Of a stretch of DNA of 64,000 nt, positions 2,361 to 32,622 are shown piece after piece; position 1 is the first letter of the stretch, and each line of letters begins with the position of its first letter. A model generated the notes under the pieces. It had not been told where the DNA came from, searched no databases, and saw only the letters and a program-made list of their open reading frames with translations. Origin of the DNA: a virus. Location of the stretch: positions 1 through 64,000 of the IMG/VR virus record IMGVR_UViG_3300014720_000019; one strand, given 5' to 3'. The position numbers and the translations under genes were made by a program.

Positions 2361-5300
2361 CTAGATAGAAGCTAATAAGACTTTATTAGCTTGCATCATA
2401 AAGTTGATGCCATTTCTATACATCTTATTCATCCAGCCATCTTGAGGAAGAAGCTTAGTATGATATTCATGCTTAGAAACAAGCTTCAAACAAGACATAT
2501 ATTCAGTGAACTCATCACCCTCTTCAACACTGATCAACTCAAGACCAGTAGAAGGATCAAAGCCTCTACCCATATGTCTAAACATACCAATCATTGCAAT
2601 TCTGCAAAGCTTAAAGTCATCCACCTTCTCAATCTGTTCAATGGTCAACTCATTCCTGTCCAACTTGCCATAACGCATTCTATAGTAGTTAAAGTCACAG
2701 ATGATCTCCATAACTTGCTGCCAATCAGAATCCTTAGTAGGCAAGTCTAATGCATCAAGCATATATTCAATAGCATCATATAGAACAACATTCTTGTCAT
2801 CCTTCACAGCAATTCTAGGAAGAATAGAACCATCTTCAGCCTTAGCATATGCATACAACGGACCGTTAGGAACCTTATCATACATAACAAGGCTAGCAGC
2901 TCTCAACACTTCAAAGAACTCAGCAGCTTTAGCACTATAGCCAGATAGACCAAGACCTTCATAGATCAAAGTCCAAATGACTAAAATAGCCTTCTCCAAT
3001 AAGTCCATTCTAGTAAAAGACTCATCATAAGACTTAACAGCAGCCCAGCAAGTAATAGCACTTGCAATACCATAGCCAGTACCAACAGAGTACATGTAGT
3101 GATTACTAGTCTTAACATGAATACCCGCTAGCCCAACATGACCATACTCAGTGTTAAATGCAAACTCCTCAACATCCTCATGAGGCAAGAAAGAAGCATA
3201 AGCAAACCCAGCAGGTCTAATCAATTTCTTCTTAGCAGGAGACTCAATAAAGTCACTGAAGGGCAGCTTAGAACTGGCATAAACAGTCTTATAACCAGTG
3301 AGACCTACAATAGACTTGTTAGCAGCAATAGCATCAGCAATAGTCAACCCTCTAATAGAACAGTTGATCAAGCCAATACCATCACCATCAGAGTCACCGC
3401 TATTACCTTGAGCCCAAATACAAGGAAGAATACCAACATGACTTGGTTCAATCTCATTAGTAATAACAAGCTTACACATAGCTGGCATAAACATAGGAAT
3501 CCGTACAGCAGCAACAATAGTACCATTAAGCAAAGAAGGATCAAAGTACTTAACCTCATAGCCTTCTGCTTTCAAGTTCTTAGTGCTAACTTCAATGCAA
3601 TGCTCGGGCATTACAAAGTTAGTCTTGTAATCATCCTTGTTGTCAAAGTACTTAGTAACAAGATACTTCTCATTCCAAGTCTTATCAGCATTCTTAGCCA
3701 ACAACTTAGCCATACCACAGTCAGGATTGACCAAAGCTTTAGGCAACCCATCAGTATCAGGAATCAAAGACAAGTTGTACACAGTTCTAACCTTGCCGTT
3801 GACAAGACACTTAGAACTTCTAGACAACTTCTTAATAATACCCTTGCTTTGTAGACCAGCAATCAACCAGCCCCTTAAGCTATTAGAAAGCTTAAGAACA
3901 GTAGCGTTAATCTTACTGTCAATACCACTAATGCCTATGGTTCTAACGGGATCAGCAAAGAATCTAATAGCGCCTACAATCTCTTGAGAGATTTGATCAG
4001 CAGTACCACCGATAAAGGTCATGGTCTTATTAACTGTAGACCAATCAATGAGCAACTTAGAGTTGTTAGATTGACCATTAGAAGTGATCATCAGACCATC
4101 AGGAAAGATCTTTGCCATAATATTACAAACTTGTCTATCGTCCTTACCGTTGAGATTAGGAATGATAGCTTGAAATGCCTTCAATTGTTCAGTGTCTTGA
4201 GCATTAAAGACATAGGTCTCATCATAGATCTCATAACTAGCCATGTCTAATAGACCTTGCAAAGCTTGTCTAATAGGTAAGGCTTCAGAGTATAAAGCCT
4301 CTACAAGCTTAGGACTAATCAATGACATACCCGCCATCATCTCAGGAGTAAGATTAGACTCGCCAACAGACTCATCAGCAGTAGAAATCTCAAAGTTCAA
4401 TGGCATATAACCAACAAGAACTTCAATGTCTTCTTCCACAACAACAGCACCCTTGCCAAGGTCTTCAACAAGCCGCCACTTAAAGTCAAATCCATTGCCA
4501 GTATTAACATCATAACCAGCAGAAATAGCAGACTCCAGAGCAAATTCATAGTGCGTTTTAGGCATAGTAACTTGCACTTTCATCTTCTCAGTAGTCTTAT
4601 TAACCCATTCAGATACAACGTTCTTGGGATTCATCAAGTCAGACTTCTTGACCTTACCATTGTTGTAAGTAATCACCATTCTACAACCATCATTATCACC
4701 TTCAACAATAGCAGTTTTGATGCTTGCATTAGAATTAGCAAACATTACAAGTTCTGCAACATTGCCCTTTCTAGTCTCATTGTTGTAAATGATATCAGCA
4801 GGATAGCCAACCTCATTACCATTAGCATCAAACCACTTGTAGTTAGGAGAAACAACCGTAGTAGCTTTGAGGCCAGCAGTTCTGAACTTAGCAAATTGGA
4901 CTTGCTTTACAGCCTTCACCTTCAATTGAATCTTGCAGTGACTAGGGCGATAACCATTCTTGCTCATCTTAGGAGGCTTAACCTTGTAACCAGTTACAAT
5001 AAAGAACTGATTATGAGTGTTGTTAGTAAACAATGGCTTGATGTTGCCACTACCATAATCAAACACAGCAATAGTCTCGCCAGGGCCAAACACCTTGTCT
5101 TGAGGAATAGCTTCCAATACATTCTCAATGTCATTCAAGAACATAAAGAAGTTAGCATGGTCTTTAGTAATACCAGAGTTGTACTTCTCCCACACTTCAC
5201 CAGTACAATCATTGAAGTTAATCAACGTAGGAATAGACTTGTCTAAGCCATAGTAAGCAGCATACTCAGGATTCATAACAGCAACACCACTGCCACTAGA

Positions 5301-6572
5301 GATGCTACCATCAGTCAATGCAATCTTGACCATCTGACCTTCCATCATACATGCCTTACCAGTAGACATGATCTTAGTGCCAAACTTAGATTCAACCCTA
5401 GTAGAAGATAGAGTACCATCAGGATTAGTCTGACACAAATCAGAGCCTTGATATTTGAAAGACTGAGTGATTCTATTCAACATCTTGGCACCAACTTCAA
5501 TGACCTTAGTCTTCTTGTTGGCTTTAGCACCAGTATCATTGATGGTAAATTGACCCTTCTGAGTCTTAGTAGATCCATCCTTGCTCTTATAAGAAACAGT
5601 ACCACCAAAGATACCACAAGCATTAGCAGCATCATCATTGTATACAGTCTTAGAACCAACCTTATCCATAAGAATAGTGTTGCCCCATTCAACTTTAGCA
5701 GTCTTGATCTTGCCGTTGGTCATAGCATAGAAGGGAAAGCCCATGATTTGTCTGCCAGGATTATACATAAACTTTACACCCTTAGCTTGGCCCTTCTTCA
5801 AGTACTTGTTGCTATCATTGGCAACAACACCATAGTTCTGCTCTTCATCCCACAAAGCAGGAATAGAGTTGATGATACCTTCACCCTTCCATAGACCATC
5901 ATGACCAAGCTTTACAATCTCAGCACCTAGCAAGAACAGGAAGCCAGAAGTACCAACAGTTATTGCATCAATGGCAACTCGCTTAGTAGCTTGTTTAGTA
6001 GTATTACCAACCGTAAATTCACCAGTTGCAAAGTCAAGTTCCAAACCACCATAGTTAGCAGCATATGTGACTTTAGTACCTTCCAACTCGATACCATAGC
6101 TCAAATAGCTAAACATCTTAGCTAGAACATCTGGAGACAGAGCAGATAGTTTAGCAGCTACTTGAGCCATAACAAAGTTAGGAAGATCATCATGCTTAAC
6201 AGCAAGAACACCTTCCAAGTCTTCAACAGACGCATCTACAAAGTAGACAAGATCATCTTCAAGGAGATCATGATAAGACATATCTTCAATAGGAAGATAA
6301 CCATCAGATGTAGTCATGCTACCAAATCCTTTAACCACACCTGAAGCTGCCATCACACAACCACAAGCATGAAGATAAGTCAACAGAGGACTTACATTAA
6401 GCTTAGAAGGACCTGAGGGTAATACATAGTTGAGTTCTTGAGTCTCAATTGCAAGGCTAATGTTTTCAGAGGCAAGGTAGTTAGCTAGATCAATGTGAAG
6501 ATCATTGTCTTCATCAACTTGGAAGTTGAGAAGGAATGATAGAGTTGCTTCAAGGCCTTTTAGATTGGACAT
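2361..6572 (-). CDS. Single-chain two-barrel (double-psi beta-barrel) DNA-dependent RNA polymerase, probably non-virion
   Basis: 1403 aa; beta-like motifs AKFRTAGLKATT and PADIIYN, then beta'-like VRIPM and catalytic GDSDGD (3381-3395) in canonical order. Confidence 0.8.
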   Translation of the reverse strand: MSNLKGLEATLSFLLNFQVDEDNDLHIDLANYLASENISLAIETQELNYVLPSGPSKLNVSPLLTYLHACGCVMAASGVVKGFGSMTTSDGYLPIEDMSYHDLLEDDLVYFVDASVEDLEGVLAVKHDDLPNFVMAQVAAKLSALSPDVLAKMFSYLSYGIELEGTKVTYAANYGGLELDFATGEFTVGNTTKQATKRVAIDAITVGTSGFLFLLGAEIVKLGHDGLWKGEGIINSIPALWDEEQNYGVVANDSNKYLKKGQAKGVKFMYNPGRQIMGFPFYAMTNGKIKTAKVEWGNTILMDKVGSKTVYNDDAANACGIFGGTVSYKSKDGSTKTQKGQFTINDTGAKANKKTKVIEVGAKMLNRITQSFKYQGSDLCQTNPDGTLSSTRVESKFGTKIMSTGKACMMEGQMVKIALTDGSISSGSGVAVMNPEYAAYYGLDKSIPTLINFNDCTGEVWEKYNSGITKDHANFFMFLNDIENVLEAIPQDKVFGPGETIAVFDYGSGNIKPLFTNNTHNQFFIVTGYKVKPPKMSKNGYRPSHCKIQLKVKAVKQVQFAKFRTAGLKATTVVSPNYKWFDANGNEVGYPADIIYNNETRKGNVAELVMFANSNASIKTAIVEGDNDGCRMVITYNNGKVKKSDLMNPKNVVSEWVNKTTEKMKVQVTMPKTHYEFALESAISAGYDVNTGNGFDFKWRLVEDLGKGAVVVEEDIEVLVGYMPLNFEISTADESVGESNLTPEMMAGMSLISPKLVEALYSEALPIRQALQGLLDMASYEIYDETYVFNAQDTEQLKAFQAIIPNLNGKDDRQVCNIMAKIFPDGLMITSNGQSNNSKLLIDWSTVNKTMTFIGGTADQISQEIVGAIRFFADPVRTIGISGIDSKINATVLKLSNSLRGWLIAGLQSKGIIKKLSRSSKCLVNGKVRTVYNLSLIPDTDGLPKALVNPDCGMAKLLAKNADKTWNEKYLVTKYFDNKDDYKTNFVMPEHCIEVSTKNLKAEGYEVKYFDPSLLNGTIVAAVRIPMFMPAMCKLVITNEIEPSHVGILPCIWAQGNSGDSDGDGIGLINCSIRGLTIADAIAANKSIVGLTGYKTVYASSKLPFSDFIESPAKKKLIRPAGFAYASFLPHEDVEEFAFNTEYGHVGLAGIHVKTSNHYMYSVGTGYGIASAITCWAAVKSYDESFTRMDLLEKAILVIWTLIYEGLGLSGYSAKAAEFFEVLRAASLVMYDKVPNGPLYAYAKAEDGSILPRIAVKDDKNVVLYDAIEYMLDALDLPTKDSDWQQVMEIICDFNYYRMRYGKLDRNELTIEQIEKVDDFKLCRIAMIGMFRHMGRGFDPSTGLELISVEEGDEFTEYMSCLKLVSKHEYHTKLLPQDGWMNKMYRNGINFMMQANKVLLASI

Positions 6573-6582
6573 AATAGTTGAT

Positions 6583-6651
6583 AGTGAGTTTGCTTAATGT
6601 TTATTGTACTTACATAAGTACAATAAAAGGGGCTTTATTGCCCCTTTTATT
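6583..6651 (-). promoter_or_regulatory. Early-cluster element upstream of RNAP gene
   Basis: GGGGC/GCCCC hairpin with TTTTATT, overlapping TTATTGTACTTA/TAAGTACAATAA hairpin, AACTCACT at 6583-6590. Confidence 0.7.
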
Positions 6652-6660
6652 AATCAGCTA

Positions 6661-7842
6661 CTAAACCATAGAAGACCTTCTAGGAGAAGATGCTTTAGGC
6701 TCATCAACAGTAGTCTCAACAGACTGTTGTTGTACTGTTGTCTTAGCAGTGTTAACTGCACCTGCCATACCCTTAATGTTGATAACATCATTAGTGTACT
6801 CAACATCAGAATACTTGTCTTGCATATCCATTAGATATGCCTTGCAAGTTAATAAAGACCAGCCAGGGAACTGAGTAGATTTAGCAAGCTCTTGAAGTTT
6901 AGCTTCAACAAACTTGTTCCACTTGCCAGCTTCCAGTTCAGCTTCAAATGCAGTTTTGGCATTAGCAACCGCTTTATTACCAAACTGATTCTTAGCCTCG
7001 ACCTGCTTCTTCATACCATCAACAGAACCAGTGCCATTGATCTTCTTCTGTAGATTAATAACAGAAGAAACAGAAGAAGAGAAACTGCTAACTGCAATCT
7101 CATTCTTGTACTTAGGTGTGTAGAAAACACCTTCATTCCAAGTAGCTGCAACAACAACAGTTTCAAAGAAACGACCATAGACAGGTTCACCATCTTTAGG
7201 CTTTAACACCTCAACAATATCACTGCACTTAGCAGTGCCATTAGGGTTAGCGCTGAGAACAAAGAAGATGCTCAAGCTTTTAACTTGACCAGCAAGAGTC
7301 TTAGCACCCAACTGTTGAACAAAAGACTTGTCCCAATGAGCACAGTTAAACTCAAATACAATCTCACCACCAACATTATTGTCAGCAGCAATTGCTTGCC
7401 AAGCTTCAAAGTCAATATTCTCATTGACAACAACAGACTGCATAAGAGCCTTCTTAGCAGTGTCATTCAGCATTGGCAAGCGCTGTTGCAACTCTGCCAA
7501 TTCATCATCCTCACAATCTACCAACTTGTAGACAGTAGTAGTACCTTCAGTGATGTATTTAGGCTCACCATCCTTCAAAGTGTAACCCATTGGCATGAAC
7601 TTCATGAAAGCACGATCACCTTCATTAGTAGAAGTAAAAGCACCACCAATGGTCTTCAATGCAGATTTAGGACCAAATGCAACCTTCTGAGAGAAGTTTA
7701 CATTGACAGAATAGACTTTATGACCATTCAGCACAGCTTCATAGACCTCGTCCATTGAACCAAAGTTCAAAGACTTCTTAGGCTTAGAAGTAGCCTTGGT
7801 TTCAGACGCGTTATTAGAAGCAGCCTTGTTAAATAAAGACAT
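6661..7842 (-). CDS. Hypothetical protein immediately upstream of RNAP
   Basis: 393-aa ORF with highly biased codons; no motif recognised. Confidence 0.85.
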   Translation of the reverse strand: MSLFNKAASNNASETKATSKPKKSLNFGSMDEVYEAVLNGHKVYSVNVNFSQKVAFGPKSALKTIGGAFTSTNEGDRAFMKFMPMGYTLKDGEPKYITEGTTTVYKLVDCEDDELAELQQRLPMLNDTAKKALMQSVVVNENIDFEAWQAIAADNNVGGEIVFEFNCAHWDKSFVQQLGAKTLAGQVKSLSIFFVLSANPNGTAKCSDIVEVLKPKDGEPVYGRFFETVVVAATWNEGVFYTPKYKNEIAVSSFSSSVSSVINLQKKINGTGSVDGMKKQVEAKNQFGNKAVANAKTAFEAELEAGKWNKFVEAKLQELAKSTQFPGWSLLTCKAYLMDMQDKYSDVEYTNDVINIKGMAGAVNTAKTTVQQQSVETTVDEPKASSPRRSSMV

Positions 7843-7858
7843 AATAATATTCTCCGTT

Positions 7859-7922
7859 GGCCCTTTTGTTTAATAAAGTGAGTTTTGGGCCTAAATAAAA
7901 GGGCCAGACACGGCCCTTTTAT
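7859..7922 (-). promoter_or_regulatory. Early-cluster double-hairpin element
   Basis: Minus: GGCCCTTTTATTTA GGCCC AAAACTCACTTTATTAAACAAAA GGGCC ... ATG. Confidence 0.75.
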
Positions 7923-8061
7923 TATAATTGATTACTATAAACTCAGGGAGTATTTATAGTAATCAATAATGTATTAGTCTATTGAAGATGTTTAGGAATA
8001 ATAAGCTTATTCTGTTTACAGAAGGTATAAAGATCAACTTTATCACCATTTACTGTCCACT

Positions 8062-9552
8062 TTAAACCTTCTTCTTAAGTACAGGTTTAGCAGCAACCTT
8101 TAAGTACTTAAAGCCGTTAGGGTCATCTGCTATATAATTGATATAGGGATTATTAGCGCCCTTTCTACCCCCATAATTCCTCAAGAAGAAAATACCTTTA
8201 ACTTTAGGAAGTTTGCCCTCCTCTTCAATTAAAGTTAGACCTGCCTTTTTAGCAGCTTCTATATAGGGAGCATACTTAGTAAGACTCTCTGCTAACACCG
8301 CAGCTTGTCTCTCCTTTTCAGCTTTATTCCTAGCAGCAATGTCAGCCTTCTTCTTAGCTTCTGCTTCTTTAGCTTTCCTATTCTTATCAAGACAAGATTG
8401 AATCTCCTGTCTAATAAGATTAAGATTATAAGCATCATCTACTGGCATATAGAAATACACATTATCCCCATATTCATCCTTATAAGATGCCAAGTATTTA
8501 CCTTGAGTATACTTCCAACTATCAAAAGTAACTCCTAATGAGTTGGCCACAGAATGAGCCCAATTATCACATTGGTGTTCCATTCTGTATAGCCAAGGAA
8601 TATACTCTGTAGCTTTTGGGTTCTCAGAATTATATAGAATTATATCTTTATAATTCTCCTTAACCCAAGCATCAAGAGTATAAACACTAACAGCATATTT
8701 ATACTCTTGATTATACTGTTTATAGAAGTGATAATCATTAAAAACCTCTAACTTTAACTTGTTGATATAAGCTTCAGCCTTTTCAAGACTATCAACAATA
8801 AAAGTTGTATCTTTATTGATTACAGATCCATCTTTTAACTTCAAGACCTTCTTTTGAAAAGTCTTAATATAAGTTTCACTAAAGCTTGTAAAAGCGTCAG
8901 CAAAACCATCCCCAGATGAACCTCCATATTTTTCAGTAACTTTACAGGAGGAAGGAGTATCAATACATAATATTGCTCCACTAAAGTGCTCATCAACTAT
9001 AGCTTGATAATCCTTCCATACTTGAGGATACCAGTCTTTATCAAGCATTATCTCTTTAGCCTGAGCAATTAAAGCCGCTTTAGTATCAGCTTCATCTTTA
9101 ATAGCTTTCAACCTCAAAGCTTCAGCCTCTTCTTTGGCTTTAATAGCAGCTTGCTTCTCCTGCTCTTCTTTATATAGAGCATCAACAAGAGACTTATCTT
9201 CAACGTATGTCTGCCACACCAATTCAGACTCATGTTGAAGAAACCACTCTTCAAACCTTATATTCTCCTCATCTTCATCAAAGAAGAACCAACCATACTC
9301 ATCAGAGTCATAGGCTGTATGCTCTAAATGTGAAGGTATATTAGCATAGATGCTACCATCTTCTAGCTTATATAGAGTATAAGTACCCACATCAATCATT
9401 GTTTTGAGTGCTTTATTAGCATCTTTAACAATGATACTTGCTTGTTGCCATTCACCCTCAACAGTGATATAGCAAGTTACATTTTTGATATTAATCATAG
9501 AATTAATCTCCATAAACTTAGGTTCTAATATAGTAGTAATACTATCTATCAA
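8062..9552 (-). CDS. Hypothetical protein with coiled-coil segments
   Basis: 496-aa ORF; start uncertain. Confidence 0.85.
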   Translation of the reverse strand: MIDSITTILEPKFMEINSMINIKNVTCYITVEGEWQQASIIVKDANKALKTMIDVGTYTLYKLEDGSIYANIPSHLEHTAYDSDEYGWFFFDEDEENIRFEEWFLQHESELVWQTYVEDKSLVDALYKEEQEKQAAIKAKEEAEALRLKAIKDEADTKAALIAQAKEIMLDKDWYPQVWKDYQAIVDEHFSGAILCIDTPSSCKVTEKYGGSSGDGFADAFTSFSETYIKTFQKKVLKLKDGSVINKDTTFIVDSLEKAEAYINKLKLEVFNDYHFYKQYNQEYKYAVSVYTLDAWVKENYKDIILYNSENPKATEYIPWLYRMEHQCDNWAHSVANSLGVTFDSWKYTQGKYLASYKDEYGDNVYFYMPVDDAYNLNLIRQEIQSCLDKNRKAKEAEAKKKADIAARNKAEKERQAAVLAESLTKYAPYIEAAKKAGLTLIEEEGKLPKVKGIFFLRNYGGRKGANNPYINYIADDPNGFKYLKVAAKPVLKKKV

Positions 9553-9588
9553 AGTACTAATAACTATACTATTATTATCTATAATCTA

Positions 9589-10965
9589 TTATGACAATTG
9601 GCCTTCAAAGTTAGAGATCTCAGTGTTAAGATCTCTAATAGCCAACATAATGTCATGGTTAGACATGCCAGAAGCTCTCTTAGCAAGAGGAGTCTTTAGC
9701 TCTTCTTTGTACTTCTTAATAGCATCTTTAAAGCCATTAATAGTACGTCTTACTTGAGCCTTCTTATCAGCCTTTACAGACTCAATGTAAGACATAACAG
9801 CTTCTAGCTCTCTCTTAAAGACAGCATAGAACTTCCTAGTAGCTCTTAAAGCCTCTTCATACTTACCAGCGTCATAGAGCGCTTGGCAGTTATCAACTAA
9901 CTGCTTGTAAGTGTTGAAGTGGGCTTTATGATTGCTATTTAAATCACCACCTTCTTGTAAGAATGCTTCCACATCTCTTACAACTTGTTTGGCATTAGCC
10001 AAGTACTTAGCAGTTTCCTGCTTAGCCTTGTTAGCCTTTGCCCTAGCTAGATCTGCTTGCTTCTTAGCCTGCTCAGCTTTATAGAGCTCAACAGCCTTAG
10101 CAGCACGTTCTGCCTTAGCCTTTGCTTCAGCCTCTTCAGCTAGTTTAGCAGCAACAATAGCTGCTTGTTTAGCTGCTTCTGCTTCAGCCTTGGCAGTTGC
10201 CAACATAGTAGTAACGTTACTACTATCAAAGGGAAGTGCTAACTCGTCTAGCACTTCTTGTAACAAGACTGGCTTAGCAGCTTCAAAGCCACTAGCCAAG
10301 TCCCTCTCATAGACTTGAACTTCTTGGTCTGCCCAAGCATTCAAGTCTTGATTTACCTGAGCCTTAATAGACTCAAACTCATCAACAACTACACTAATAG
10401 TTGCTTTGAGTTCTGCTTTATATGACTCATACTGAGCCACATAAGCAGCATGAATCTCACTCTTTCTCTCAAAGATGAGATCAGCAACAGCCCCCTTCTG
10501 TTGCTCATAGAAGGTCTTATACATAGCCTTCTTCAAAGCATCTTTCAATGCCTTATTACTATCATCAACAACAGTATTAATGATAGGATCTACAGCCTTG
10601 TTAGGCTTAGGAGCAAACTGGTCAGCTTTGGTGCCAGTATTGCCCTTAACAACAGGCTTAGTGTTAACAGAAGGAGCGACCTTCTTTGCAGCTCTAGGCT
10701 TTTGTACAAACTTTTGGGCATTATCCCAAGTTGGTTCCACCAAGTCTGTAGGGATTAAACCTACAAAGACTAAAAGTGCAATCTTCTTAGCTTGAACAGC
10801 CTTGAAGACTGACTTAGCCTTCTTAGCTTTAGCAGACTTGTTAGCAGTCTTAGCTGCTTGTTTAGCAGCTTTAGCAAGACGTGCAGCATTGGCCTTAGCC
10901 TTTTCTGCTTCAGACATACGATTTCCAACTTGACCAGCCTTCTTAATTTTAGCCATGATACTCAA
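9589..10965 (-). CDS. Ala/Lys-rich coiled-coil protein with histone-H1-like basic N-terminus
   Basis: 458 aa; real start probably ATG at 10956 (MAKIKK). Confidence 0.85.
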   Translation of the reverse strand: MSIMAKIKKAGQVGNRMSEAEKAKANAARLAKAAKQAAKTANKSAKAKKAKSVFKAVQAKKIALLVFVGLIPTDLVEPTWDNAQKFVQKPRAAKKVAPSVNTKPVVKGNTGTKADQFAPKPNKAVDPIINTVVDDSNKALKDALKKAMYKTFYEQQKGAVADLIFERKSEIHAAYVAQYESYKAELKATISVVVDEFESIKAQVNQDLNAWADQEVQVYERDLASGFEAAKPVLLQEVLDELALPFDSSNVTTMLATAKAEAEAAKQAAIVAAKLAEEAEAKAKAERAAKAVELYKAEQAKKQADLARAKANKAKQETAKYLANAKQVVRDVEAFLQEGGDLNSNHKAHFNTYKQLVDNCQALYDAGKYEEALRATRKFYAVFKRELEAVMSYIESVKADKKAQVRRTINGFKDAIKKYKEELKTPLAKRASGMSNHDIMLAIRDLNTEISNFEGQLS

Positions 10966-10967
10966 AT

Positions 10968-11590: not shown

Positions 11591-11594
11591 TTAT

Positions 11595-23800: not shown

Positions 23801-26800
23801 TGTAGACCGCCATATAAACCTCTACCTTGTTCAAGCATCACAGCCATAGAACTGATATCTATTGTCTTATCTCTAAAGCCCCCCTCACTAGCACCTACAA
23901 AGAACCTACTATCAACGCCCATATAAGAGGCCACATCTTTTGCCATCTTAGCCTGATTAGTACTACTAGTAACATCAAGTTGTAAGCCCTTTAAAGCTAA
24001 AGCATCATTTACTAGTTGCTTCTCATCCTTAGCAATAGCCTTTTGTATCTTACTATAATCATCAGTAGACATCATTCTATTAACAAGTTTATCCTTATTA
24101 ACCTTAATAGATAGCTCCATATCATTGATGCTATTCATCTTCTCAGTGATCTTATGTAACAGAGTTATATAGTTATCACCATCAAAGTCACCAAGATTAC
24201 TAGTAAGAAAGGATAGACCATTAAACATTGCTAGACTCTTACTTCTATCAACGTCAAACTTAACAATATTATTAGCCTCATCAACCTTAATATTGTCAAC
24301 CATCTTATTAAACTCATCCACACCTCTAATGCTCATCAGCGTTGCTAGATGTGGCTCCGTTGAACCAAAAGGAGCAGATCTCCAGCTTTGATTCTGCATA
24401 TTATCTAATTGACTAAACCTGTTATAGGCCATACCAACTTCCATCAAAGCATAGTGTAAGAACTGAGTACTAGTATTACCCTTATTCTTATAATCATTAA
24501 CCTGATCTCTTATACTTGTTAGATGACCAATAAGGGTGCCACTAGTATTAGTACCAACACCCAACAATTTTCTATTAAACTGTGTTAAATACTCTTCTTG
24601 TCTAGATCTTGGCTTCTTATTGTCCTTAGCAGTTGGAGCAAAGTTATCAATGAAGTCACCTAACAGATCAATCCTCTTAGTTATATACTCACTAACAAAT
24701 GAGGCCTTCTCTTCAAAGGTTGCACTAGTATCATTTAACAAGTCTCTAATGCTAGTAGTAGCTTGTTGGTATACTGTGTGCTTACCTCTCATAGCACCTT
24801 CTAATTCTTTACCATACTGATTAATAAGATCTAATCCCATGCTATAGTCTCTATTTGGTCCATTATGAATAAAGTCTCTAATCTCATGATTATTGCCAAG
24901 ATAGACCGCCTCTTGAAACTTATTTTTCTTCATCCACTTATTAATATCACCAACAACAGATGGCTTCTCAATCTTAATCTTTGCAAACTGTAAGTTAGCC
25001 AATACATAACTAGCAACGTATGCCTGATCATATGCACCAGTATTATCCAACTCCGCTCTAACTCTATCCCTAGACTCTCTAGCATTCTTAATAGCAGCGT
25101 CAATCCATTTAGTATCAATGGGCTGTCCCTTCTGTGCCCTGTTAACCAACTCATGAGCATGAGCAATAGTACCAATTCTATGTTGTAGTTCTAATGAGGC
25201 AAGATTAGACATACCTCTTACTAGCATTTGTCTTTGATAGTCTAATACAGTACCTAATGATTTAGTAAACTCACCAACTAACTTATCCTTGTTATACTTA
25301 CTAATATCACCAGTCAGCTTATCACCCATATTGACATAATTAAGATGCGCCTCAGCAGTGACATTAAACAGTTGTTGTCTAATATAAGCAACACCCTCTG
25401 GAGCCCCATATCTCTCATTAACAAATTGAGGCATAACGTTCATGTTAGCAGCTATAGACATATTAGGAATAGGAGTACTAACATAACCATCAAACTCAGT
25501 CCCATGACCCGCCATAGCCTTCTGTACTAAGGTGTCACTACTAGCTTGAATAATGCTTGTCATCAACTCATCACCTAAGTTATAAAACTTATTAAGCATT
25601 AGAGTTTCTTCTCTACTCAAATTAACATTAAACATGACACTACCATTCTGCGCCTTTTTAGCCTTACTCAGTTTAATTAGTAAATCATTCTCAGCAGTAC
25701 CAGGAGTAAAGTAGCTATACATGTTAATACTTCTACCAACGATCTCACTAACAAAGTCACCAAAGCTGCTACCAATTTGATTTAACAACTCAGCACCAGG
25801 CATAAACATATACTTACTTCTAGTACTGCTAAACACATAGTTATAATCACCAGTAGCACTATCCATCATAGGATCACCTATAACTTCAGGCATTAGTATA
25901 TTGGCAGTAGTATTACCCATTTCCATCAACATCTTTAGCTTGGGTTGAGTAATATCAGTACCCATACCTTTACTCTGTTCCAAGTTATATCTAATAGCTT
26001 CTCTCTTTAAATCTTCAACAATACTAATAGCAACATTCTTAGTTCTAACAGTATAGCTATTAGGATCATCCATCTTATTATTTAAAACCTTATCAGCATA
26101 CACCGCCTCAGCCAGTGTCATACTGCCTTCTATAAAGTATTGTTCAGCTTTACTAGCATCAAAGCCCTCTCTAATACTAGCCTTATATATCTTCTTATAT
26201 TCACTCATTAGCTGCTTACTATTACTATCAGCGCTATAGTAAACACCTAAGAACTTCTTACCATAGAAGCCACTAACAATGGTTTGATCTAAAGCATCAA
26301 CAGCATTAATACTGTCTAAGTACTCCTTACTATCGGCCATACCAACACTAATAGCACCAATATCACTAGCAGCAAATATAGTGCCTAAGACATAGGCTAA
26401 GTTACCCTTATTACCAGTTCTAGTAAACTGTTTAGTCTGAGCTTCTAATGGTGTCAATAGATGTTGTATTTCCGTCTTAGCTCTTAAGTTTTTACCTAGG
26501 GGATCTTTATTAGCAGAGGGTAAAACATTAATAGCAAGAGCAACAGCATAGTTCTGTTGTAAGTATATCCCCATCATCTCAGCCAACTTATCCTTCTCTT
26601 GATTAGACATGTTAAAGGCATTACTCTGACCACCCAAAGCAGCAGCAATTTCAACCAATGGATCATTAGTCTGTCTACCAATTAACTTGCCTTCATCATC
26701 TCTAATACCCATCTTAAATAGCCAATCAGTGACAACACTAATATCACCCTTTTGATTCTTCAATTGACCAAACATGTCAATAGCAGTTAACAGTGCTGTT

Positions 26801-29800
26801 ACACCCTTGGTATACATGTCACTACTATTAATAACATAAGCCTTATCTTTACTAGAAGAGTCATACAAGACATCACTAACATATCTTTGTAATAGCTCGT
26901 CCAAATTACCACCACCAGTTGTCAACGCCTCATTAATAGCATTAGTCAACTCACCATTATTCATAATGAACTGAGGAATTGAACCAAATATATTATCCTT
27001 AGAACCACTCTTATTACCCTTAAGAATGTTTTGCATCTCCAACATTCTCAGATATGTGCCATACTGACCACTTAAAGCTTCTCTATGATATGCTTTAACA
27101 GCCTTATCATTTCTCTGTCTAGCATCTCTATCTTCAATTCTATTACCCTTATTATCAAACATGCTTTTAGTTATGTCTAAACCAAACTGACTAACTAAAG
27201 CCATAGCTAACATCTTCTTATCCTGTCTAACTAAAACTTCAGCCACTCTTTGTTTAGCCCCATTAACTTCAACATCCCTTGTTAATAGAACACCACCATG
27301 ACCAACAAAGAAGCCACTCTTTAAGTTATTAGGATTAACAAGACCATACACATCAGACAAGCCAACATTCATCTTATTAAAACTACTAACACCAACTGTT
27401 GACTTATCAGTGCTATAACCCAATGCTTGTTTAAATGAGCTATACAACTTACTAAACTGACCACCATCTAAGAAGGCAGCAACACCCTTAAACAACAAAG
27501 CAGCAGCAGTACCTTCTTGTCTTCTACTACTACCAGCTCTAATCATATTCAAAGGAGTAACTTCAAAGACAATCTCATTAGTAGGACCACTTCCACCCTC
27601 TCTAACCTTAGCCTTTAATATATATTGAACTGAATCCTCACCAGGTCTATTACTAGTAGATCTTTGTTTAACACTAGCAACAGGCTTACCAAATAGACTA
27701 AAGTTTTCTATTTGACCTATCAAGTAATCACTAGAACCAGTACCACCAACATAGGTGTTACCAATTACTCTATTACCTCTACTATCTTCTGTGTATTGAA
27801 CAACCTTGTTATATATTCTATCATATATAAAGGTGTCTCCATCCTTAATAACAAAGCCATCACTAGCCAGTTGTTCTCCACTCAATCTAACCTCACCAAC
27901 ATACGTTCTAGTATCAAGCATACTAGCCTTAATACCAGTAGTAGTTGGACTAGGAGCCGCCGCATAATACTTAGTTCTAAAGTTAGGATTAAGATAAAAA
28001 TGATCACTGTAGCCACCATTCAACTGTAATATCATAAACTGTGGCTTATCTCTTCTACCTCCAATCATACTACCCAACTCATTAGGATTGGTCATACTTT
28101 GATTGATCATTTTTAATCTAAACATATAGTTGAGGGCCATCCTACTCTCCTCATCTAGCTCCTGATCAAACTGACTAAACAGCTCTCTTCTCTGCTCAAC
28201 AACATTATTATAAGCACTCTCACTTAACACTGATCTAACATCAGTGTCAAACATAGTACCAAGGTTTACCTCCTCAGCACTTAAATAATTCTGTATAAAC
28301 TTCTTAGCTTGGTCATCCTTATCACTATTACCTAATAAACCAACCAACCTATCAACATAGCTCTTAACAAGTCTCTGTTTATCCCTCTTAAAACTACTTA
28401 GAGTTTCACCAGTTAATAATGTATTAGCAGCCTCCTCACTAACCTCATACAACAATCTACTACCTAGTGCATTCTTAATACGCTGTGCAATCTGTGCTGG
28501 CTTATTAGGATCTAAGTTAAACAGTATGCCCTTATCATCCTCCTTCATACCAAGTTCTTGCATGATATAACCAGCATCAACATCACCAAACTTAGCCTTT
28601 AATCTTTGCTTACTTATGAGAGTACCAATACCAGTACCTTCTAATATCTCAACACTATTTCTATCAGTTGGAAACTTATTTCTAATACCAAATGTCTCTA
28701 ATTGGTATCCATCTTTACTTTGAGTTGAAACGCCCTCAGCAACACCACTTAAATAGTATCTAGGACTGCCCTCCATATCAACGCCAAAGCCACTATAGAC
28801 ATCAACATCTCTTGCAAATGTTCTAGCCCATCTAAGTATTCCCATCAACTCATTACCACTAGATTGAGCCATCTTAATCATATCAATGGCTCTATTATTA
28901 CCACTATCCAAGCTATATAGCTGATTCTTACTAGCAGCAACACCCGCTCCATAAGTAATAGCTTGGTGAAAGCCTAAGAATGGTTCTAACATCGTTCTTG
29001 ATAGCTCTCTCATCTGACTATTTAAATCATTCTCAATGTTAAAACCACTATTACTTCTAAGAACTTCTAGTGATAGATCTTCATAGCCTTGCTGACCTAA
29101 TAGACTACCTAACTGACCAATAACTCTTTCAACATCACTACCACTACTAGCACTTCTTAGAGCCTCTACTTGTTTTATTAATACTAATCTACTATAAGGA
29201 TCAATACCAGCCATAGCTCTAGTATTATCAAGATAGCTAACACCCATAGTATTAAATCTACCTTCTAACTCACTAGCTAATCTCTTGTGTTCTCCCCTTT
29301 CAAATAAGTAGTTACTATACTCACTACTATTAGTATAAGCACCACCTCTCATACTACTAAGAACATCTCTCTTAATACCTAGGATAGAAGTAGTAAAATC
29401 AAACACAAGACTAACTCTATCAGCCTCACCAACCCCAACCAATCTACTAGCTGGATTAGTAATACCTTGTCTATATGCCATCTCCCCAATCATAGTTGCA
29501 AAGATGCTAGTAGTATTATCAATGCTAGACATCTCCACTGATTGACCAGTGTTTAGTTGGCCCTTTGTAAACATCCAATCAATAGCTTGACCACTATTAT
29601 TAGTAAAGTTGCTATTGTATATCAACTTACCTTCCTTCTGGAAGAAAACAGGACCAGGTTGATTGTTAGTACCTTGTAACATGCCCAACGTATATGTCAA
29701 TCTACCAGTACTTAGATTCATACCTAACATGCCACCAACATTAATACTAACTTCCAACATTAAAGGGGTGCCAAATCTATCATACTTTCTAGTAATAGAC

Positions 29801-32622
29801 ATAGCATCACCTAAGCCTTTACTCATCTCTTTAAGGCTCGCTTCTAGTCTTAATAAATCCTTACTATTACCCTGTTTAGCCCAATATGGTAAACCCTCTA
29901 TTGATGGCATAATATCATTAGTAACTCTATTGCCATAAGTTAGTTGGTTATATGACATTATGACCGCCTTATTTAACTCTTTAGTCTCATATAACTCCTC
30001 CTCTAACAACATAGAGTTCTCATTATTTATAAATCTAATAGCATTTAAGTTATCTAAATAATCCTGATCAGCTTGATTTCTAATAGAAGAGCCAACCCTT
30101 CTACCTTCACTCTCAAATATCTCTCTATTAGTAAAGACAACACCCATCTCATCACTAACATATGGATCATTATCATTACCCATTAAATATCTACCATTTA
30201 AGCCAACACCCATGTTAGACATAGACAAGTTAGCACTACCAGTGTAGCTAGCAATTTGACTAAATCCCTTACTCTCTCTCTTATAAGCAGTAAAAGACTT
30301 ACTATGTTGTCTAGGCACATTAGCACCAGTAATATTACCACTTGCTATTGCCAATACTTGATAAGCAGTTAGATCATTACCATTACTACTATTAATACCT
30401 AACCTAGCATTCAACTTATTAACTTTATCACTTAAAGTATCAGTACTACTAGTAACACTACTAACAAAGCCCCTGATAGACCCACCGTAATCACTAACAA
30501 AGCGGCCATCTAAAGCCATATTAATATAATCCCAAGTAGGCTCAATCACTTGAGATGTAAAGTTCTTATTATCAACAACAATCTTAGTTAGACCCAATGC
30601 AACCATAGCAAAGTTCTTCTTCTGCATAGCTTTATACATATCATACTTAGCATCTTGTCTAGTTCTAAAGCCACTATCACTGTCAAAGGTATTCCTATCA
30701 AAGGTGCCCATCTCACCCCTTTCAAAGTTATTCTTATTAGGTTTATTAGGATCATCTTTATCCACGTATCCTCTATAACCTAAGTGATTAACATGTAAGA
30801 AGTAAGCTTGGTCTAACACCATATTCATTCTAAGATCACCAGTGTATTTACCCACATGATCAAATAAGGTGCCACCAACCTCATTACCAACAGTTCTATC
30901 TAAATAGTCAATAGTAGCCTTCAATGTATACATAATGTCAGTGGCATACTTAATATTAGATTGAGTGCTTCTACTTCTAAGTTGATTCTCCTCCTTCTGA
31001 GCTTCAACTACTTGGTTATACATTAATGCTGATAGATATTGTTTATAGTCATTAGCCTTTTGATCTCTTAATCTTTGAGGATCAAAGTCTTTAGACAATG
31101 TTCTAAATCTTTCTTGCTGCATAAAGAATCTACCAGCAAAACCATTATTACTATAATCTCCAAGTCTTGATCCATTTATGAAGCCCTTACTTGATTCTTC
31201 TAAATACCATCTTCTTTCTTGTATTAATTTATCATTCCTCTTAAACATGACCATCATTTCAAAGTTGGAGCCAGCTTTAAACACAGAATCACCAACAGGA
31301 CTAGTTAAGTTAATACTACCTAAAGATGCAAACTGATTAGTTAGATATACCTTCCTGTGATGAGCGGGGCCAGCATATGTAAAGTTAAAAGCAGCATTAG
31401 CAATAGCCTCAGCTTCTACTCTATCTTTATACTTATTAGTAGACACCCACTCATCTACTATCTGATCTCTTAATCTTTTTAACTTTTGTATCTCTAATAT
31501 ATTAGGACCAAAGATAGCAGCACCAGTACCATCATCACTTGGAATAGGAGTACCAACAGTCACATTAATCTTAAAATTAGTATTATTATTTACAACTAAC
31601 TCTCTATAAATCTTACTAACAACAACATCACTGATAGCCTTATTTTGATACTGAAACGTATCAATAGTAATAAAGTCTTTAGCACTCTCAAACATAGCAA
31701 CAAAGGGTAATATACCAGGTCTTGTTTGATACTTAACATCATCTAATATTGTCTCTGCTTTCTGTTTATAACTCTTTTCAATACTAACATCAATAGACTT
31801 AGTAAGACGTTTAGCTCTACTAACCCCACCACCAGTCAACTCATTAGTCATAGATCTAACTCTAACAAAGTCTAGATCAGTAATAGTTTGACCAGCACCT
31901 CTCCTTCTATTATTAAATCTATTCTGATTAAAAGCACTAATATCATCTCCTGTAGCACCATTTTTAATAGTAGGAACAAGACCTCCACCAAACAAGTCAC
32001 TATCAACTAATCTAGCTAATGTCTCTTGACCTCTAGCCTCTAACCCTTTCTTATCTTCACTAGGTCTAAGCCTATTAAAAGCAGAAGCATAGTTATAAGC
32101 TTGATTTATATAATAGTTATCAATCTTGTTAGTACTATTATTACCTAAATACATGCCTTGTTGTCTTAAAGCATCTCCAAATATATTCTCAAATACAGTT
32201 TGACTGGCATAAGCTTTAGTCTCAGTAGGATCAATTCTATAAGCCTCACCCATTAGAAACTTAAGACTATTTCTACTGTCTTTCAAGTTATTACTCATAC
32301 TAGTATCAAACTCACTAAAAGTCCTACTAGTAACCGTTTGACTAATACCATATACAAGTCTATTATCAAAAGCTATGCCTTTATTTGATTGATCAACACC
32401 ATACAGACCATTAGATATGTCATTATTCATACCTAAAGCTCTTTGCCAATCAGTATTATCTAAGGCCGCCTCATTACTAAAGCCTTCACTGTTATATAAA
32501 TTAAAACTAACAGCAGTACCTAAAGCACTTTTATTACCTTGTTGTATGTTATTGTATAAACCACTAACAGCCTCTCTTCTAGACTCTAAATGGTATTCAG
32601 TATTTGAGAAATAACTTGACAT
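20851..32622 (-). CDS. Giant multidomain protein: tandem PLD-like domains + two-barrel RNA polymerase (candidate virion RNAP, possibly tape-measure fusion)
   Basis: HRKVYLTNQFASLGSINL and HSKSF...YTGSANLS PLD motifs; GGYSDHFYLNP, FKGV, GLVNPNNLK, WRSAP, NLGDFDGDN (24175-24189), LGRTYN, RDSIKLKG; Gly-rich hydrophobic C-terminal segments. Confidence 0.75.
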   Translation of the reverse strand: MSSYFSNTEYHLESRREAVSGLYNNIQQGNKSALGTAVSFNLYNSEGFSNEAALDNTDWQRALGMNNDISNGLYGVDQSNKGIAFDNRLVYGISQTVTSRTFSEFDTSMSNNLKDSRNSLKFLMGEAYRIDPTETKAYASQTVFENIFGDALRQQGMYLGNNSTNKIDNYYINQAYNYASAFNRLRPSEDKKGLEARGQETLARLVDSDLFGGGLVPTIKNGATGDDISAFNQNRFNNRRRGAGQTITDLDFVRVRSMTNELTGGGVSRAKRLTKSIDVSIEKSYKQKAETILDDVKYQTRPGILPFVAMFESAKDFITIDTFQYQNKAISDVVVSKIYRELVVNNNTNFKINVTVGTPIPSDDGTGAAIFGPNILEIQKLKRLRDQIVDEWVSTNKYKDRVEAEAIANAAFNFTYAGPAHHRKVYLTNQFASLGSINLTSPVGDSVFKAGSNFEMMVMFKRNDKLIQERRWYLEESSKGFINGSRLGDYSNNGFAGRFFMQQERFRTLSKDFDPQRLRDQKANDYKQYLSALMYNQVVEAQKEENQLRSRSTQSNIKYATDIMYTLKATIDYLDRTVGNEVGGTLFDHVGKYTGDLRMNMVLDQAYFLHVNHLGYRGYVDKDDPNKPNKNNFERGEMGTFDRNTFDSDSGFRTRQDAKYDMYKAMQKKNFAMVALGLTKIVVDNKNFTSQVIEPTWDYINMALDGRFVSDYGGSIRGFVSSVTSSTDTLSDKVNKLNARLGINSSNGNDLTAYQVLAIASGNITGANVPRQHSKSFTAYKRESKGFSQIASYTGSANLSMSNMGVGLNGRYLMGNDNDPYVSDEMGVVFTNREIFESEGRRVGSSIRNQADQDYLDNLNAIRFINNENSMLLEEELYETKELNKAVIMSYNQLTYGNRVTNDIMPSIEGLPYWAKQGNSKDLLRLEASLKEMSKGLGDAMSITRKYDRFGTPLMLEVSINVGGMLGMNLSTGRLTYTLGMLQGTNNQPGPVFFQKEGKLIYNSNFTNNSGQAIDWMFTKGQLNTGQSVEMSSIDNTTSIFATMIGEMAYRQGITNPASRLVGVGEADRVSLVFDFTTSILGIKRDVLSSMRGGAYTNSSEYSNYLFERGEHKRLASELEGRFNTMGVSYLDNTRAMAGIDPYSRLVLIKQVEALRSASSGSDVERVIGQLGSLLGQQGYEDLSLEVLRSNSGFNIENDLNSQMRELSRTMLEPFLGFHQAITYGAGVAASKNQLYSLDSGNNRAIDMIKMAQSSGNELMGILRWARTFARDVDVYSGFGVDMEGSPRYYLSGVAEGVSTQSKDGYQLETFGIRNKFPTDRNSVEILEGTGIGTLISKQRLKAKFGDVDAGYIMQELGMKEDDKGILFNLDPNKPAQIAQRIKNALGSRLLYEVSEEAANTLLTGETLSSFKRDKQRLVKSYVDRLVGLLGNSDKDDQAKKFIQNYLSAEEVNLGTMFDTDVRSVLSESAYNNVVEQRRELFSQFDQELDEESRMALNYMFRLKMINQSMTNPNELGSMIGGRRDKPQFMILQLNGGYSDHFYLNPNFRTKYYAAAPSPTTTGIKASMLDTRTYVGEVRLSGEQLASDGFVIKDGDTFIYDRIYNKVVQYTEDSRGNRVIGNTYVGGTGSSDYLIGQIENFSLFGKPVASVKQRSTSNRPGEDSVQYILKAKVREGGSGPTNEIVFEVTPLNMIRAGSSRRQEGTAAALLFKGVAAFLDGGQFSKLYSSFKQALGYSTDKSTVGVSSFNKMNVGLSDVYGLVNPNNLKSGFFVGHGGVLLTRDVEVNGAKQRVAEVLVRQDKKMLAMALVSQFGLDITKSMFDNKGNRIEDRDARQRNDKAVKAYHREALSGQYGTYLRMLEMQNILKGNKSGSKDNIFGSIPQFIMNNGELTNAINEALTTGGGNLDELLQRYVSDVLYDSSSKDKAYVINSSDMYTKGVTALLTAIDMFGQLKNQKGDISVVTDWLFKMGIRDDEGKLIGRQTNDPLVEIAAALGGQSNAFNMSNQEKDKLAEMMGIYLQQNYAVALAINVLPSANKDPLGKNLRAKTEIQHLLTPLEAQTKQFTRTGNKGNLAYVLGTIFAASDIGAISVGMADSKEYLDSINAVDALDQTIVSGFYGKKFLGVYYSADSNSKQLMSEYKKIYKASIREGFDASKAEQYFIEGSMTLAEAVYADKVLNNKMDDPNSYTVRTKNVAISIVEDLKREAIRYNLEQSKGMGTDITQPKLKMLMEMGNTTANILMPEVIGDPMMDSATGDYNYVFSSTRSKYMFMPGAELLNQIGSSFGDFVSEIVGRSINMYSYFTPGTAENDLLIKLSKAKKAQNGSVMFNVNLSREETLMLNKFYNLGDELMTSIIQASSDTLVQKAMAGHGTEFDGYVSTPIPNMSIAANMNVMPQFVNERYGAPEGVAYIRQQLFNVTAEAHLNYVNMGDKLTGDISKYNKDKLVGEFTKSLGTVLDYQRQMLVRGMSNLASLELQHRIGTIAHAHELVNRAQKGQPIDTKWIDAAIKNARESRDRVRAELDNTGAYDQAYVASYVLANLQFAKIKIEKPSVVGDINKWMKKNKFQEAVYLGNNHEIRDFIHNGPNRDYSMGLDLINQYGKELEGAMRGKHTVYQQATTSIRDLLNDTSATFEEKASFVSEYITKRIDLLGDFIDNFAPTAKDNKKPRSRQEEYLTQFNRKLLGVGTNTSGTLIGHLTSIRDQVNDYKNKGNTSTQFLHYALMEVGMAYNRFSQLDNMQNQSWRSAPFGSTEPHLATLMSIRGVDEFNKMVDNIKVDEANNIVKFDVDRSKSLAMFNGLSFLTSNLGDFDGDNYITLLHKITEKMNSINDMELSIKVNKDKLVNRMMSTDDYSKIQKAIAKDEKQLVNDALALKGLQLDVTSSTNQAKMAKDVASYMGVDSRFFVGASEGGFRDKTIDISSMAVMLEQGRGLYGGLQGVSSYMTTAVDNLLNVTKGSGTATGLIFDKKSIGEFIDKMDDSKHADSIYKALFMSELSNTYDSSLQGELNDTLKDAMRKSWEELQDSSNSINNSDNAVDATTYFSRLVAKLDATSKSNDALKKVMGSGLGIGIEDSTYDVLTRTLGKAGNDVLGRTYNTLLGTFVADSPIVSLHHMLEGQFDQIEQQMNMTDVDGSTGNLINSNGSGKGTDFVGKLRNAYNKAQKLQGWNEAIQQMLRDSIKLKGDSKSVMASLEMKSQEYVGADEVKRKEIIDSMASSIGPGGGMKALMDLNMMITRGTGKYGDAVEYGLLEGSNERLVAESLTDGSEDALIRYKVASGLRSITTMFNFEKNFGEITLDKDDRGNKRLKVSNKAVSNRALESVVAQGLYGFLGDTNVRGTMLVLAEQAMGRDKDNTAVRSVNELFNVVDSVNHFNDKGNMSDSHRNKLLADQMNKFAAEMIRFNDGGVFTTMLSDHLGGDIKGIDVSSLNTVREGSNGLTTASLLLLTHHTSITQTKTLMGDYGNGLDRFVHINKAAQTMQGNISGKFYESGTNLLGSDLFNAAYRLAAQGKLGTEGNNVMTRLFKAVHDPNMTNADAMAKMLSNFSGDEDSAREMGDMFKHLRQIEITHEIGLGDTLSYKEKVGDLIERQTKKTSQGFKLQAISEVAAAMSASGDISNIQHKKIRAEIENAYSGVGYSEPDRKEIIDNIITNDLLGGLTENKDYFKPQQVYRGNDGTTVAQLKGKVADGAFNIVGPALLSLIGGAIYGTSKDEAGLDPAGIIGSTISLMGFNMPHGKGPANVAGAIFRSKAYNDPNEDWTVSVAKGVSTELSMGLVGSYVTPKLTDIFNRNIVAPLVKNNVPIMESGTSAILGSFVGAIVANMLDSVFQNVGGIARNKFNQGDTSLNKMIDGLNSSMIDSGIAIAEAERDPQGSGFVEFDDKLDIPPIVIGVWVTDNDIERMWDGNNETYLVGGQEGYV

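Follow-up and report, generated by a model that had tools for sequence, protein, structure and literature searches.

A predicted single-chain two-barrel RNA polymerase, and a probable second one in a giant head-linked protein, of a freshwater phage related to Microcystis phage Ma-LMM01

We herein describe two large minus-strand genes in the first 64 kb of IMG/VR virus record IMGVR_UViG_3300014720_000019 (107,115 bp; approximately 59% complete); these 64,000 nucleotides, the whole stretch of DNA that was analyzed, are referred to as the window. One gene encodes a protein of 1403 amino acids (aa), P0001, which according to its structural model almost certainly carries the two-barrel fold of RNA polymerase (RNAP) and is very likely to be an active DNA-dependent RNAP. 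The other encodes a giant protein of 3923 aa, P0002, which is linked to the head module and, as judged from its invariant residues, probably contains another RNAP core. Taken as a whole, the explanation that this phage has polymerases of its own, P0001 and the probable P0002, is one that we hold with somewhat more belief than doubt. The phage is a freshwater tailed phage (myovirus) related to Ma-LMM01: the only isolated-phage relatives of the record were the Microcystis phages Ma-LMM01, MaMV-DC, and their kin, together with one Microcoleus phage, and the public sequencing runs containing this DNA were lake-water metagenomes only, which may be the source sample. The homologues of P0001 and P0002 in Ma-LMM01 were gp064 and gp080, respectively.

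Structural model of P0001

The gene and its barrel motifs, identified using AlphaFold2 (AF2), Foldseek, and VIA-align, were located as follows.

2361-6572, minus strand: P0001, predicted single-chain two-barrel RNAP and candidate non-virion enzyme
4782-4889, minus strand: predicted β-like barrel (double-psi β-barrel B; DPBB-B) motifs of P0001, K562-x-R564-x-x-G-x-K569 and DIIYN 593-597 (invariance and AF2 model)
3378-3503, minus strand: predicted β'-like barrel (DPBB-A) motifs of P0001, R1024-I-P1026 and G1059-DSDGD-G1065 (invariance and AF2 model)

The AF2 model of P0001 residues 204-1403, based on an alignment of 58 sequences, was of high confidence: the predicted local distance difference test (pLDDT) and predicted template modeling (pTM) scores were 90.9 and 0.89, respectively. 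When this model was searched against the PDB using Foldseek, the top 50 matches (E-values of 1e-4 to 3e-3) were nearly all RNAP β/Rpb2, β', QDE-1, or poxvirus RNAP, and the subunits among them were the second-largest or largest of cellular, plastid, archaeal, and poxvirus RNAPs. The highest Z scores in VIA-align were found with RDR2 (12.4; 484 residues) and QDE-1 (12.2-12.4; approximately 436 residues across model positions 41-1200), followed by P23-45 gp96 (11.1), P74-26 gp62, a homologue of gp64 (10.8; 411 of 592 residues aligned), and Rpb1 (approximately 10.7 over model positions 650-1185 or 706-1185), with an overall range of 10.5-12.4 for these five proteins; matches at most 1 Z unit apart were regarded as tied, and the tie included Rpb1 and gp96. 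Among the predicted viral structures in BFVD, the model matched the MaMV-DC homologue (E-value of 7.5e-46), crAss-like giant proteins, and RNAPs from giant viruses and poxviruses. In the model, strands E359-370 and E391-393 contained the segment with the β-like motifs, and the DSDGD loop was between helix 847-854 and strand 862-867. Two double-psi β-barrels, the DxDxD triad, and the basic residues of the β-like barrel were all found in P0001. The high-confidence model and structure searches both agreed with a first-pass annotation of this DNA, in which the 1403-aa protein had been proposed to be a single-chain two-barrel RNAP.

Other phage proteins in BFVD also matched the P0001 model: two uncharacterized proteins of approximately 800 aa from Acinetobacter phage vB_AbaM_ME3 (E-values of 6e-9 and 4e-7) and a "minor tail protein" of an uncultured siphovirus (E-value of 4e-6). 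As judged from these matches, they may be further unannotated two-barrel polymerases.

Conserved motifs and family of P0001

The 1403-aa open reading frame (ORF) and the motifs quoted in the annotation were present at 2361-6572 on the minus strand, with conservation beyond chance among ten homologues: KFRTAGLK (562-569), DIIYN (593-597), RIP (1024-1026), and GDSDGDG (1059-1065). K562, R564, K569, R1024, P1026, and G1059-G1065 were invariant in these homologues (23-76% identity), and K359, K366, and K399 in the numbering of the model were unchanged in 58 sequences. A direct reading of the sequence revealed that the β-like blocks followed the order in Escherichia coli β, GDKMAGRHGNKG ... DIVLNP. 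A HMMER search with residues 204-1403 among 1.84 billion representatives detected 116 related clusters (counted at 50% identity), 80 of them with an E-value of ≤1e-10. The motif GD[SGTAFV]DGD was detected in 90 of 123 family members; the second triad residue was S, G, T, or A in 86 of these 90 and F in three. The Ser of DSDGD, which had been described as unusual, was indeed present; however, since these small residues predominated, it is a trait of the family.

P0001 matched a PHROG of unknown function. Pfam at E-values of up to 1, including PF05183 (RNA-dependent RNA polymerase (RdRP), QDE-1 type), showed no match, nor did sequence and profile searches of the PDB with P0001 and its alignments. 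Sequence methods alone gave no clear polymerase signal; in hhalign, the β' part of P0001 reached only P-values of 0.0084 and 0.053 against gp96 and E. coli β', respectively; gp66 and gp64 were not alignable with P0001 or P0002 outside the motifs. These results indicated that P0001 belongs to a large, unannotated phage family, which on the strength of the model is a firm new family of predicted two-barrel RNAPs. In phage G010, a P0001-type polymerase module (69771-74387) was found within a 3260-aa open frame, and a 3906-aa P0002-type protein with DYDGD was also encoded; as read from these sequences, this phage has two giant, putatively polymerase-bearing proteins.

Polymerase-like motifs in P0002

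P0002 matched PHROG 31006 (function unknown), and its regions were assigned as follows.

20851-32622, minus strand: P0002, giant multidomain protein linked to the head module and candidate virion RNAP
24175-24381, minus strand: candidate DPBB-A of P0002, R2748-S-A-P2751 and G2811-DFDGD-2816 (invariance and hhalign register)
27298-27522, minus strand: candidate DPBB-B of P0002, R1701 ... K1712-G-V ... VNPNNLK1768-S ... H1775 (invariance and collinearity by eye)
30298-31359, minus strand: N-terminal phospholipase D (PLD)-like region of P0002 with two HxK motifs, H422/K424 and H773/K775 (conservation and PLDc_2)
21124-21546, minus strand: hydrophobic, Gly-rich C-terminal segments of P0002, residues 3693-3833 (Kyte-Doolittle)

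Homologues of 3400-4800 aa were gathered, and 28 sequences with identities down to approximately 20% were aligned. R2748, D2812, D2814, G2815, and D2816 were unchanged in all 28, with F, W, or Y at the second position of the triad, in a set whose DFDGD members had partly been chosen by that pattern and whose W/Y variants had entered via another seed. D-[F/W/Y]-D-G-D occurred once per giant protein of 3500-4800 aa, and the single DFDGD of P0002 was at residues 2812-2816. In the β-like region, R1701, K1712, K1768, S1769, and H1775 were invariant, and further invariant groups were found in a basic block (1374-1389) and in blocks 3088-3104 and 3177-3186.

Residues 2720-2850 of P0002 were aligned using hhalign with the β' part of P0001 (P-value of 3.4e-4), E. 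coli β' 340-520 (1.3e-3), and gp96 (0.011). These three alignments shared one register, with R-S-A-P on R-x-P and DFDGD on the triad; P-values for control alignments with β-type regions were 0.4-0.6. The hhalign probabilities of the best alignments were 4-38%, and such weak values are to be expected because P0001 and gp96, a proven pair, reached only 0.0084. The profile comparison with P23-45 gp96 that the first-pass annotation had suggested as a check provided weak matches for both P0001 and P0002, the latter in register. The β-like blocks of P0002 (1580-1775) were collinear by eye with those of P0001 and E. coli β. Moreover, the P0001 model weakly matched the BFVD model of segment 2 of Ma-LMM01 gp080 (E-value of 1.9e-3; probability of 0.60), which by alignment contains the β-like motifs.

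On the other hand, several results weighed against a polymerase core in P0002. Its β-like region gave no significant hhalign match (P-values of 0.33-0.7), and this candidate barrel consists of motifs recognized by eye. The AF2 model of residues 1640-2839 (18 sequences) had a pLDDT score of 50.6, with both candidate barrels below 50. At E-values of up to 1, the whole of P0002 matched no Pfam family, and residues 2690-3260, examined in P0002 and in nine relatives, had no Pfam match either. In the PDB, neither P0002 nor its alignments found a match by sequence or profile, and whole-family hhalign between P0001 and P0002 was not significant. D-x-D-G-D also resembles calcium-binding loops. The ESM Atlas yielded no usable match for P0002. 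Weighing both sides, the invariant residues and their register suggest that P0002 probably contains an RNAP core. For the second DxDGD enzyme proposed in the first-pass annotation, a 3923-aa ORF, an invariant DFDGD, and linkage to the head module (see below) were found; its identity as a polymerase is plausible rather than proven, the fold prediction having failed.

When the low-confidence model of residues 1640-2839 was compared with 48,161 chains using VIA-align, only generic helical bundles were obtained; these matches are meaningless and were discarded.

Terminal regions of P0002 and linkage to the head module

In the N-terminal region of P0002, H422 was invariant, and K424, H773, and K775 were conserved in at least 90% of the 28 sequences. 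The PLDc_2 match of P0002 (E-value of 0.0054; 17 bits) was below the cut-off of 27 bits, and that of its homologue P0027 (29.2 bits) was above it; furthermore, Ma-LMM01 gp080 is named "PLD phosphodiesterase domain-containing protein" in BFVD. These results point to a putative PLD-type phosphodiesterase or nuclease domain at this end. At the other end, Kyte-Doolittle peaks were found at residues 3693-3712 and 3807-3833, and G3707, G3727, and E3774 were invariant in the 28 sequences. A hydrophobic, Gly-rich C-terminus is also a feature of tape measures and ejection proteins.

From 32.7 kb onward, the plus strand carried portal, major capsid, tail sheath, and baseplate genes, including the following.

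32758-35042, plus strand: Mu-type portal gene with two small ORFs, transcribed divergently from P0002; the orf32758-like gene and the portal gene adjoined the giant gene across relatives
33591-35042, plus strand: Mu-type portal gene (Portal_Mu, PF06074)
42178-43497, plus strand: major capsid protein gene (head module)
49370-52132, plus strand: tail sheath gene (tail module)

The portal matched Portal_Mu in Pfam with an E-value of 7e-24, in accordance with the Mu-like head that had been proposed for this phage. The neighbors of the giant gene were a gene similar to orf32758 and the Mu-type portal gene, in Ma-LMM01 as well as in 15 of 17 related viral contigs (the remaining two had too little flank on the portal side); in most, the capsid gene was also nearby. 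It was usually divergent from the portal-side genes, and in two loci was co-directional and directly upstream. Since the linkage to the portal survives this change in orientation, across proteins of approximately 20-28% identity, a role for P0002 in the particle may be argued, and it is reasonably likely, from gene order and sequence, that P0002 is packaged in the virion. As a tape measure, a 3513-aa giant ORF after the tail genes, at record position 82786-93327 and beyond the window, is a better candidate than P0002. A gene for a GIY-YIG/HNH-type homing endonuclease (PHROG 314, E-value of 3e-34) was located on the minus strand at 43571-44479, opposite to and directly after the major capsid gene.

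P0001 might be the sole polymerase of this phage. P0002 would then be a giant structural or ejection protein, consisting of a PLD-type nuclease, a long helical spacer, and a membrane-active end, and DFDGD a metal-binding loop unrelated to RNA synthesis. The failure to predict barrels in P0002, the lack of any profile method that was significant on its own, the β-like barrel undetected by hhalign, conservation of the PLD motifs and hydrophobic C-terminus that equaled that of DFDGD, and the occurrence of the P0002 type without the P0001 type in a complete genome all fit such a protein. We nevertheless consider it unlikely: the stretch R-x-x-P ... N-x-G-D-[FWY]-D-G-D-x-hydrophobic strand was in register with three independent polymerases and not with the controls, the aromatic second residue of the triad is that of canonical β', and the same motif-first reasoning was earlier right for crAss gp66 and P23-45 gp96.

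Repeated cassette in the 1-16 kb gene cluster

P0001 is encoded within a minus-strand cluster, the genes of which had no family matches, and which is marked by a repeated element.

934-16098, minus strand: repeated cassette between minus-strand genes, in which a GC hairpin with GGCCCTTTTATT(TAG) at its end is followed by another hairpin and the start codon

With up to one mismatch, GGCCCTTTTNATT was found in 15 copies (0.31 expected), 13 of them on the minus strand and all within 936-16085, and this confirmed the "element-marked 1-16 kb cluster" described previously. An exact scan of the 107-kb record located the core AAAGGG[GC]C mostly in the same cluster. The cassette flanked nearly every gene of the cluster in a constant order: a GC hairpin after the gene, a second hairpin with varying (covarying) stems, and a start codon 40-60 nucleotides past the first hairpin. 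The hairpins carried CCCCTTTTT/GGCCCTTTTATT, and the loop of the second hairpin often read AACTCACT(T)TATA. In the copy at 15099, the loop matched ACTCACTATA, the T7 promoter core, probably by chance.

The GGCCCTTTTATT 12-mer and two-hairpin layout also adjoined the P0001 homologue, on its strand, in G001 (18300-26300) and G002 (34000-42700); G002 is a distant, complete record, the giant protein of which was only approximately 24% identical to P0002. The element was absent from the complete record G005, which has the P0002 type and not the P0001 type. This comparison involved a small sample of related genomes. Since the element followed the P0001-type neighborhood and was absent from G005, P0002 is not favored as its reader, which speaks against a scheme in which the giant enzyme transcribes this cluster. 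Ma-LMM01 had an analogous CCCCTTTTTC-TTTTAG element around gp064-gp067, and, separately, seven 42-bp tandem repeats (12306-12683) exactly between gp064 and the first early gene, gp063.

Even if both proteins are polymerases, the cluster could be read by the host RNAP, the GC hairpins being plain terminators and the AT-rich loops −10-like boxes; P0001 would then take the middle/late genes, and P0002 would have other targets, such as a small number of pre-early genes located at the genome end that is missing from the record. Terminator-like sites were enriched (31 versus 9.0 ± 2.5 in shuffles), as expected if the hairpins are ordinary intrinsic terminators, and TATAAT was found in the second-hairpin loops at 16057 and 10991, through which the host polymerase could read the cluster, as proposed in the transcriptome paper on Ma-LMM01. 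That paper reported σ70-like boxes before all gene classes and almost unchanged host transcripts. In addition, the AACTCACT loop motif was not kept in G001 or G002. However, σ70-like sites in the cluster were only mildly enriched and not centered on the cassettes, and the exact GGCCCTTTTATT 12-mer was kept in G002, in spite of the low identity of its giant protein; such exact conservation of the element would not be required by a hairpin as such. One cassette copy (16073-16085), moreover, preceded the first gene of the cluster, a site at which a terminator would have no use. This copy, and the clustering of the same 12-mer beside the P0001 homologue in G001 and G002, suggested that the cassette is more than a plain terminator. 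The reading with two phage polymerases and a cluster transcribed by the host enzyme appears improbable to us.

When k-mers upstream of the genes beyond 16 kb were examined for another promoter motif, of the late type, only AT-rich leader words were detected. The first plus-strand gene (16415-17584), divergent from the cluster, encoded a 389-aa protein with two weak helix-turn-helix matches and was preceded by the best σ70-like promoter of the region, TTGCAA-17-TATAAT with TG. Based on these sequence features, the 389-aa protein is a candidate for an early regulator whose gene is transcribed by the host polymerase.

Possible transcription program

In the predicted fold of P0001, the β-like barrel provides K562, R564, and K569, and the β'-like barrel the metal triad D1060/D1062/D1064, followed by a long bridge-type helix. 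P0001 may be a non-virion enzyme that is synthesized following infection and transcribes middle and/or late genes from a DNA template. P0002 would be packaged and ejected, with a PLD-type phosphodiesterase/nuclease region, a divergent two-barrel core with barrels approximately 1000 residues apart and the canonical DFDGD, and a hydrophobic C-terminal end, and it may be the enzyme that first transcribes the hairpin-marked 1-16 kb cluster as the DNA enters. The full cascade, from the injected giant enzyme to the early cluster including P0001 and then to the late genes, is put forward tentatively, as a possibility that we are inclined to doubt.

In favor of such a program were the genes of the 1-16 kb cluster, which had no family matches and were flanked by the cassette, the precedent of P23-45 (see below), and the order and later rise of gp064 and gp080 relative to the early genes in Ma-LMM01. 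Other observations were less favorable. Although a P0001-type gene accompanied the P0002-type gene in five of ten related records, it was missing from one complete record with the P0002 type, and the pair is, therefore, not obligatory. No RNA run with this phage DNA was listed among the public sequencing runs. In the RNA sequencing (RNA-seq) of Ma-LMM01, gp054-gp063, directly downstream of gp064, belonged to the early class, and gp064 and gp080 to the "middle" class B5; gp064 was barely detectable at 1 h. This timing was compatible with a virion protein that is produced late and a second enzyme that is active once the early phase is over, and fits transcription of the early genes by the host equally well; it does not settle which enzyme reads which genes.

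A broader scheme, which we regard as still more doubtful than the cascade in this phage, is that Ma-LMM01-type cyanophages in general run a largely host-independent cascade, in which a packaged protein of approximately 3900 aa, with nuclease, polymerase, and membrane parts, would be ejected with the DNA and act first and a QDE-1-like enzyme second, and in which the strictly conserved GGGCC-loop-GGCCCTTTTATT cassettes would be polymerase-specific start/stop signals and not ordinary terminators.

Comparison with known systems

Published work describes this phage group as devoid of an RNAP and as reliant on the host σ70 throughout (PMC9927357 and PMC5780444), and this premise underlies the published account in which Ma-LMM01 barely disturbs host transcription. 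In the searchable literature, we found no paper that assigned a polymerase to gp064, gp080, or their relatives. The first-pass annotation had placed the polymerase pair outside the known lineages, which holds for published work; however, a pair of the same type is also present in Ma-LMM01 (gp064 and gp080). A phage polymerase, and perhaps two, would revise current views on the control of the three temporal gene classes in phages that infect bloom-forming cyanobacteria, and gp064 and gp080 offer a cultured system for a direct test. The P0001 family would add its 116 clusters to the single-chain two-barrel polymerases, enzymes that matter for the origin of cellular RNAPs and may serve as compact transcription enzymes.

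The structures most similar to P0001 were those of QDE-1 and RDR2, with 430-480 residues over both barrels and the same order, the β-like barrel first and the Asp-triad barrel second. They differ in host, role, and template, and the likeness was structural only, PF05183 having given no match. Although these nearest structures are eukaryotic RNA-dependent enzymes, and the ESM Atlas feature search with P0001 gave a viral cluster named RdRP (PF05183; score of 0.84) as a sub-threshold lead, it is highly improbable that P0001 is an RdRP, a primase, or a PolD-like DNA polymerase with the same two-barrel core and not a transcriptase, because QDE-1 itself is reported to be DNA-dependent as well, the studied phage relatives YonO, gp66, gp64, and gp96 all transcribe DNA, Rpb1 and gp96 were tied with RDR2/QDE-1 (within one Z unit), and PolD was not among the matches listed for the model. 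By its description, YonO from Bacillus prophage SPbeta (Forrest et al. 2017, PMC5467207) is likewise a single-chain phage two-barrel DNA-dependent RNAP, of approximately 100 kDa and factor-free, which had long been "hypothetical"; no solved YonO structure was among the matches listed for P0001.

The design in which one polymerase is injected and another phage polymerase takes over would be shared with N4 and phiKZ/AR9. The virion RNAP of N4 is similar to P0002 in being approximately 3500 aa and ejected with the DNA, and differs in being T7-like and not two-barrel; the enzymes of phiKZ/AR9 are multisubunit.

The closest precedent is P23-45, which has a virion RNAP fused to the tape measure (gp96) and a non-virion RNAP (gp64) (Chaban et al. 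2024, PMC10770324). As in P23-45, two very divergent enzymes, predicted here to be of the single-chain two-barrel type, would occur in one phage: one in a giant protein of the virion module with DFDGD (gp96 also has transmembrane segments), and the other as a moderately sized "hypothetical" protein. In P23-45, the gene of the second enzyme is transcribed by the virion enzyme, and a conserved terminator motif for the latter is present in the first-entering region (PMC10770324), a precedent for a polymerase-specific signal such as the cassette. With its contractile tail and Mu-type head, the present phage differs from P23-45, which has an extremely long siphovirus tail. P0002 is encoded beside the portal and not in the tape-measure position, and its polymerase-like core is central (approximately 1500-3300) and preceded by the PLD-like region, whereas the core of gp96 is N-terminal. 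No sequence similarity was detectable beyond the motifs.

The virion RNAP of crAss-like phage phi14:2, gp66 (2180 aa; PDB 6VR4; Drobysheva et al. 2021), is a giant packaged protein that, similar to P0002, was first recognized by DFDxD; the enzyme has two barrels in a single chain, is related to QDE-1, and transcribes the early genes. It belongs to a podovirus of Bacteroidota that lacks a second phage polymerase. The 50 matches listed for P0001 did not include 6VR4, which is not evidence of its absence. Both the combination of single-chain two-barrel virion and non-virion enzymes and the giant packaged form are, thus, already known, from P23-45 and crAss-like phages, respectively. If P0002 is confirmed, the giant injected two-barrel polymerase would be a design of contractile-tailed phages as well as of crAss-like podoviruses and Thermus siphoviruses, and the domain layout would be new.

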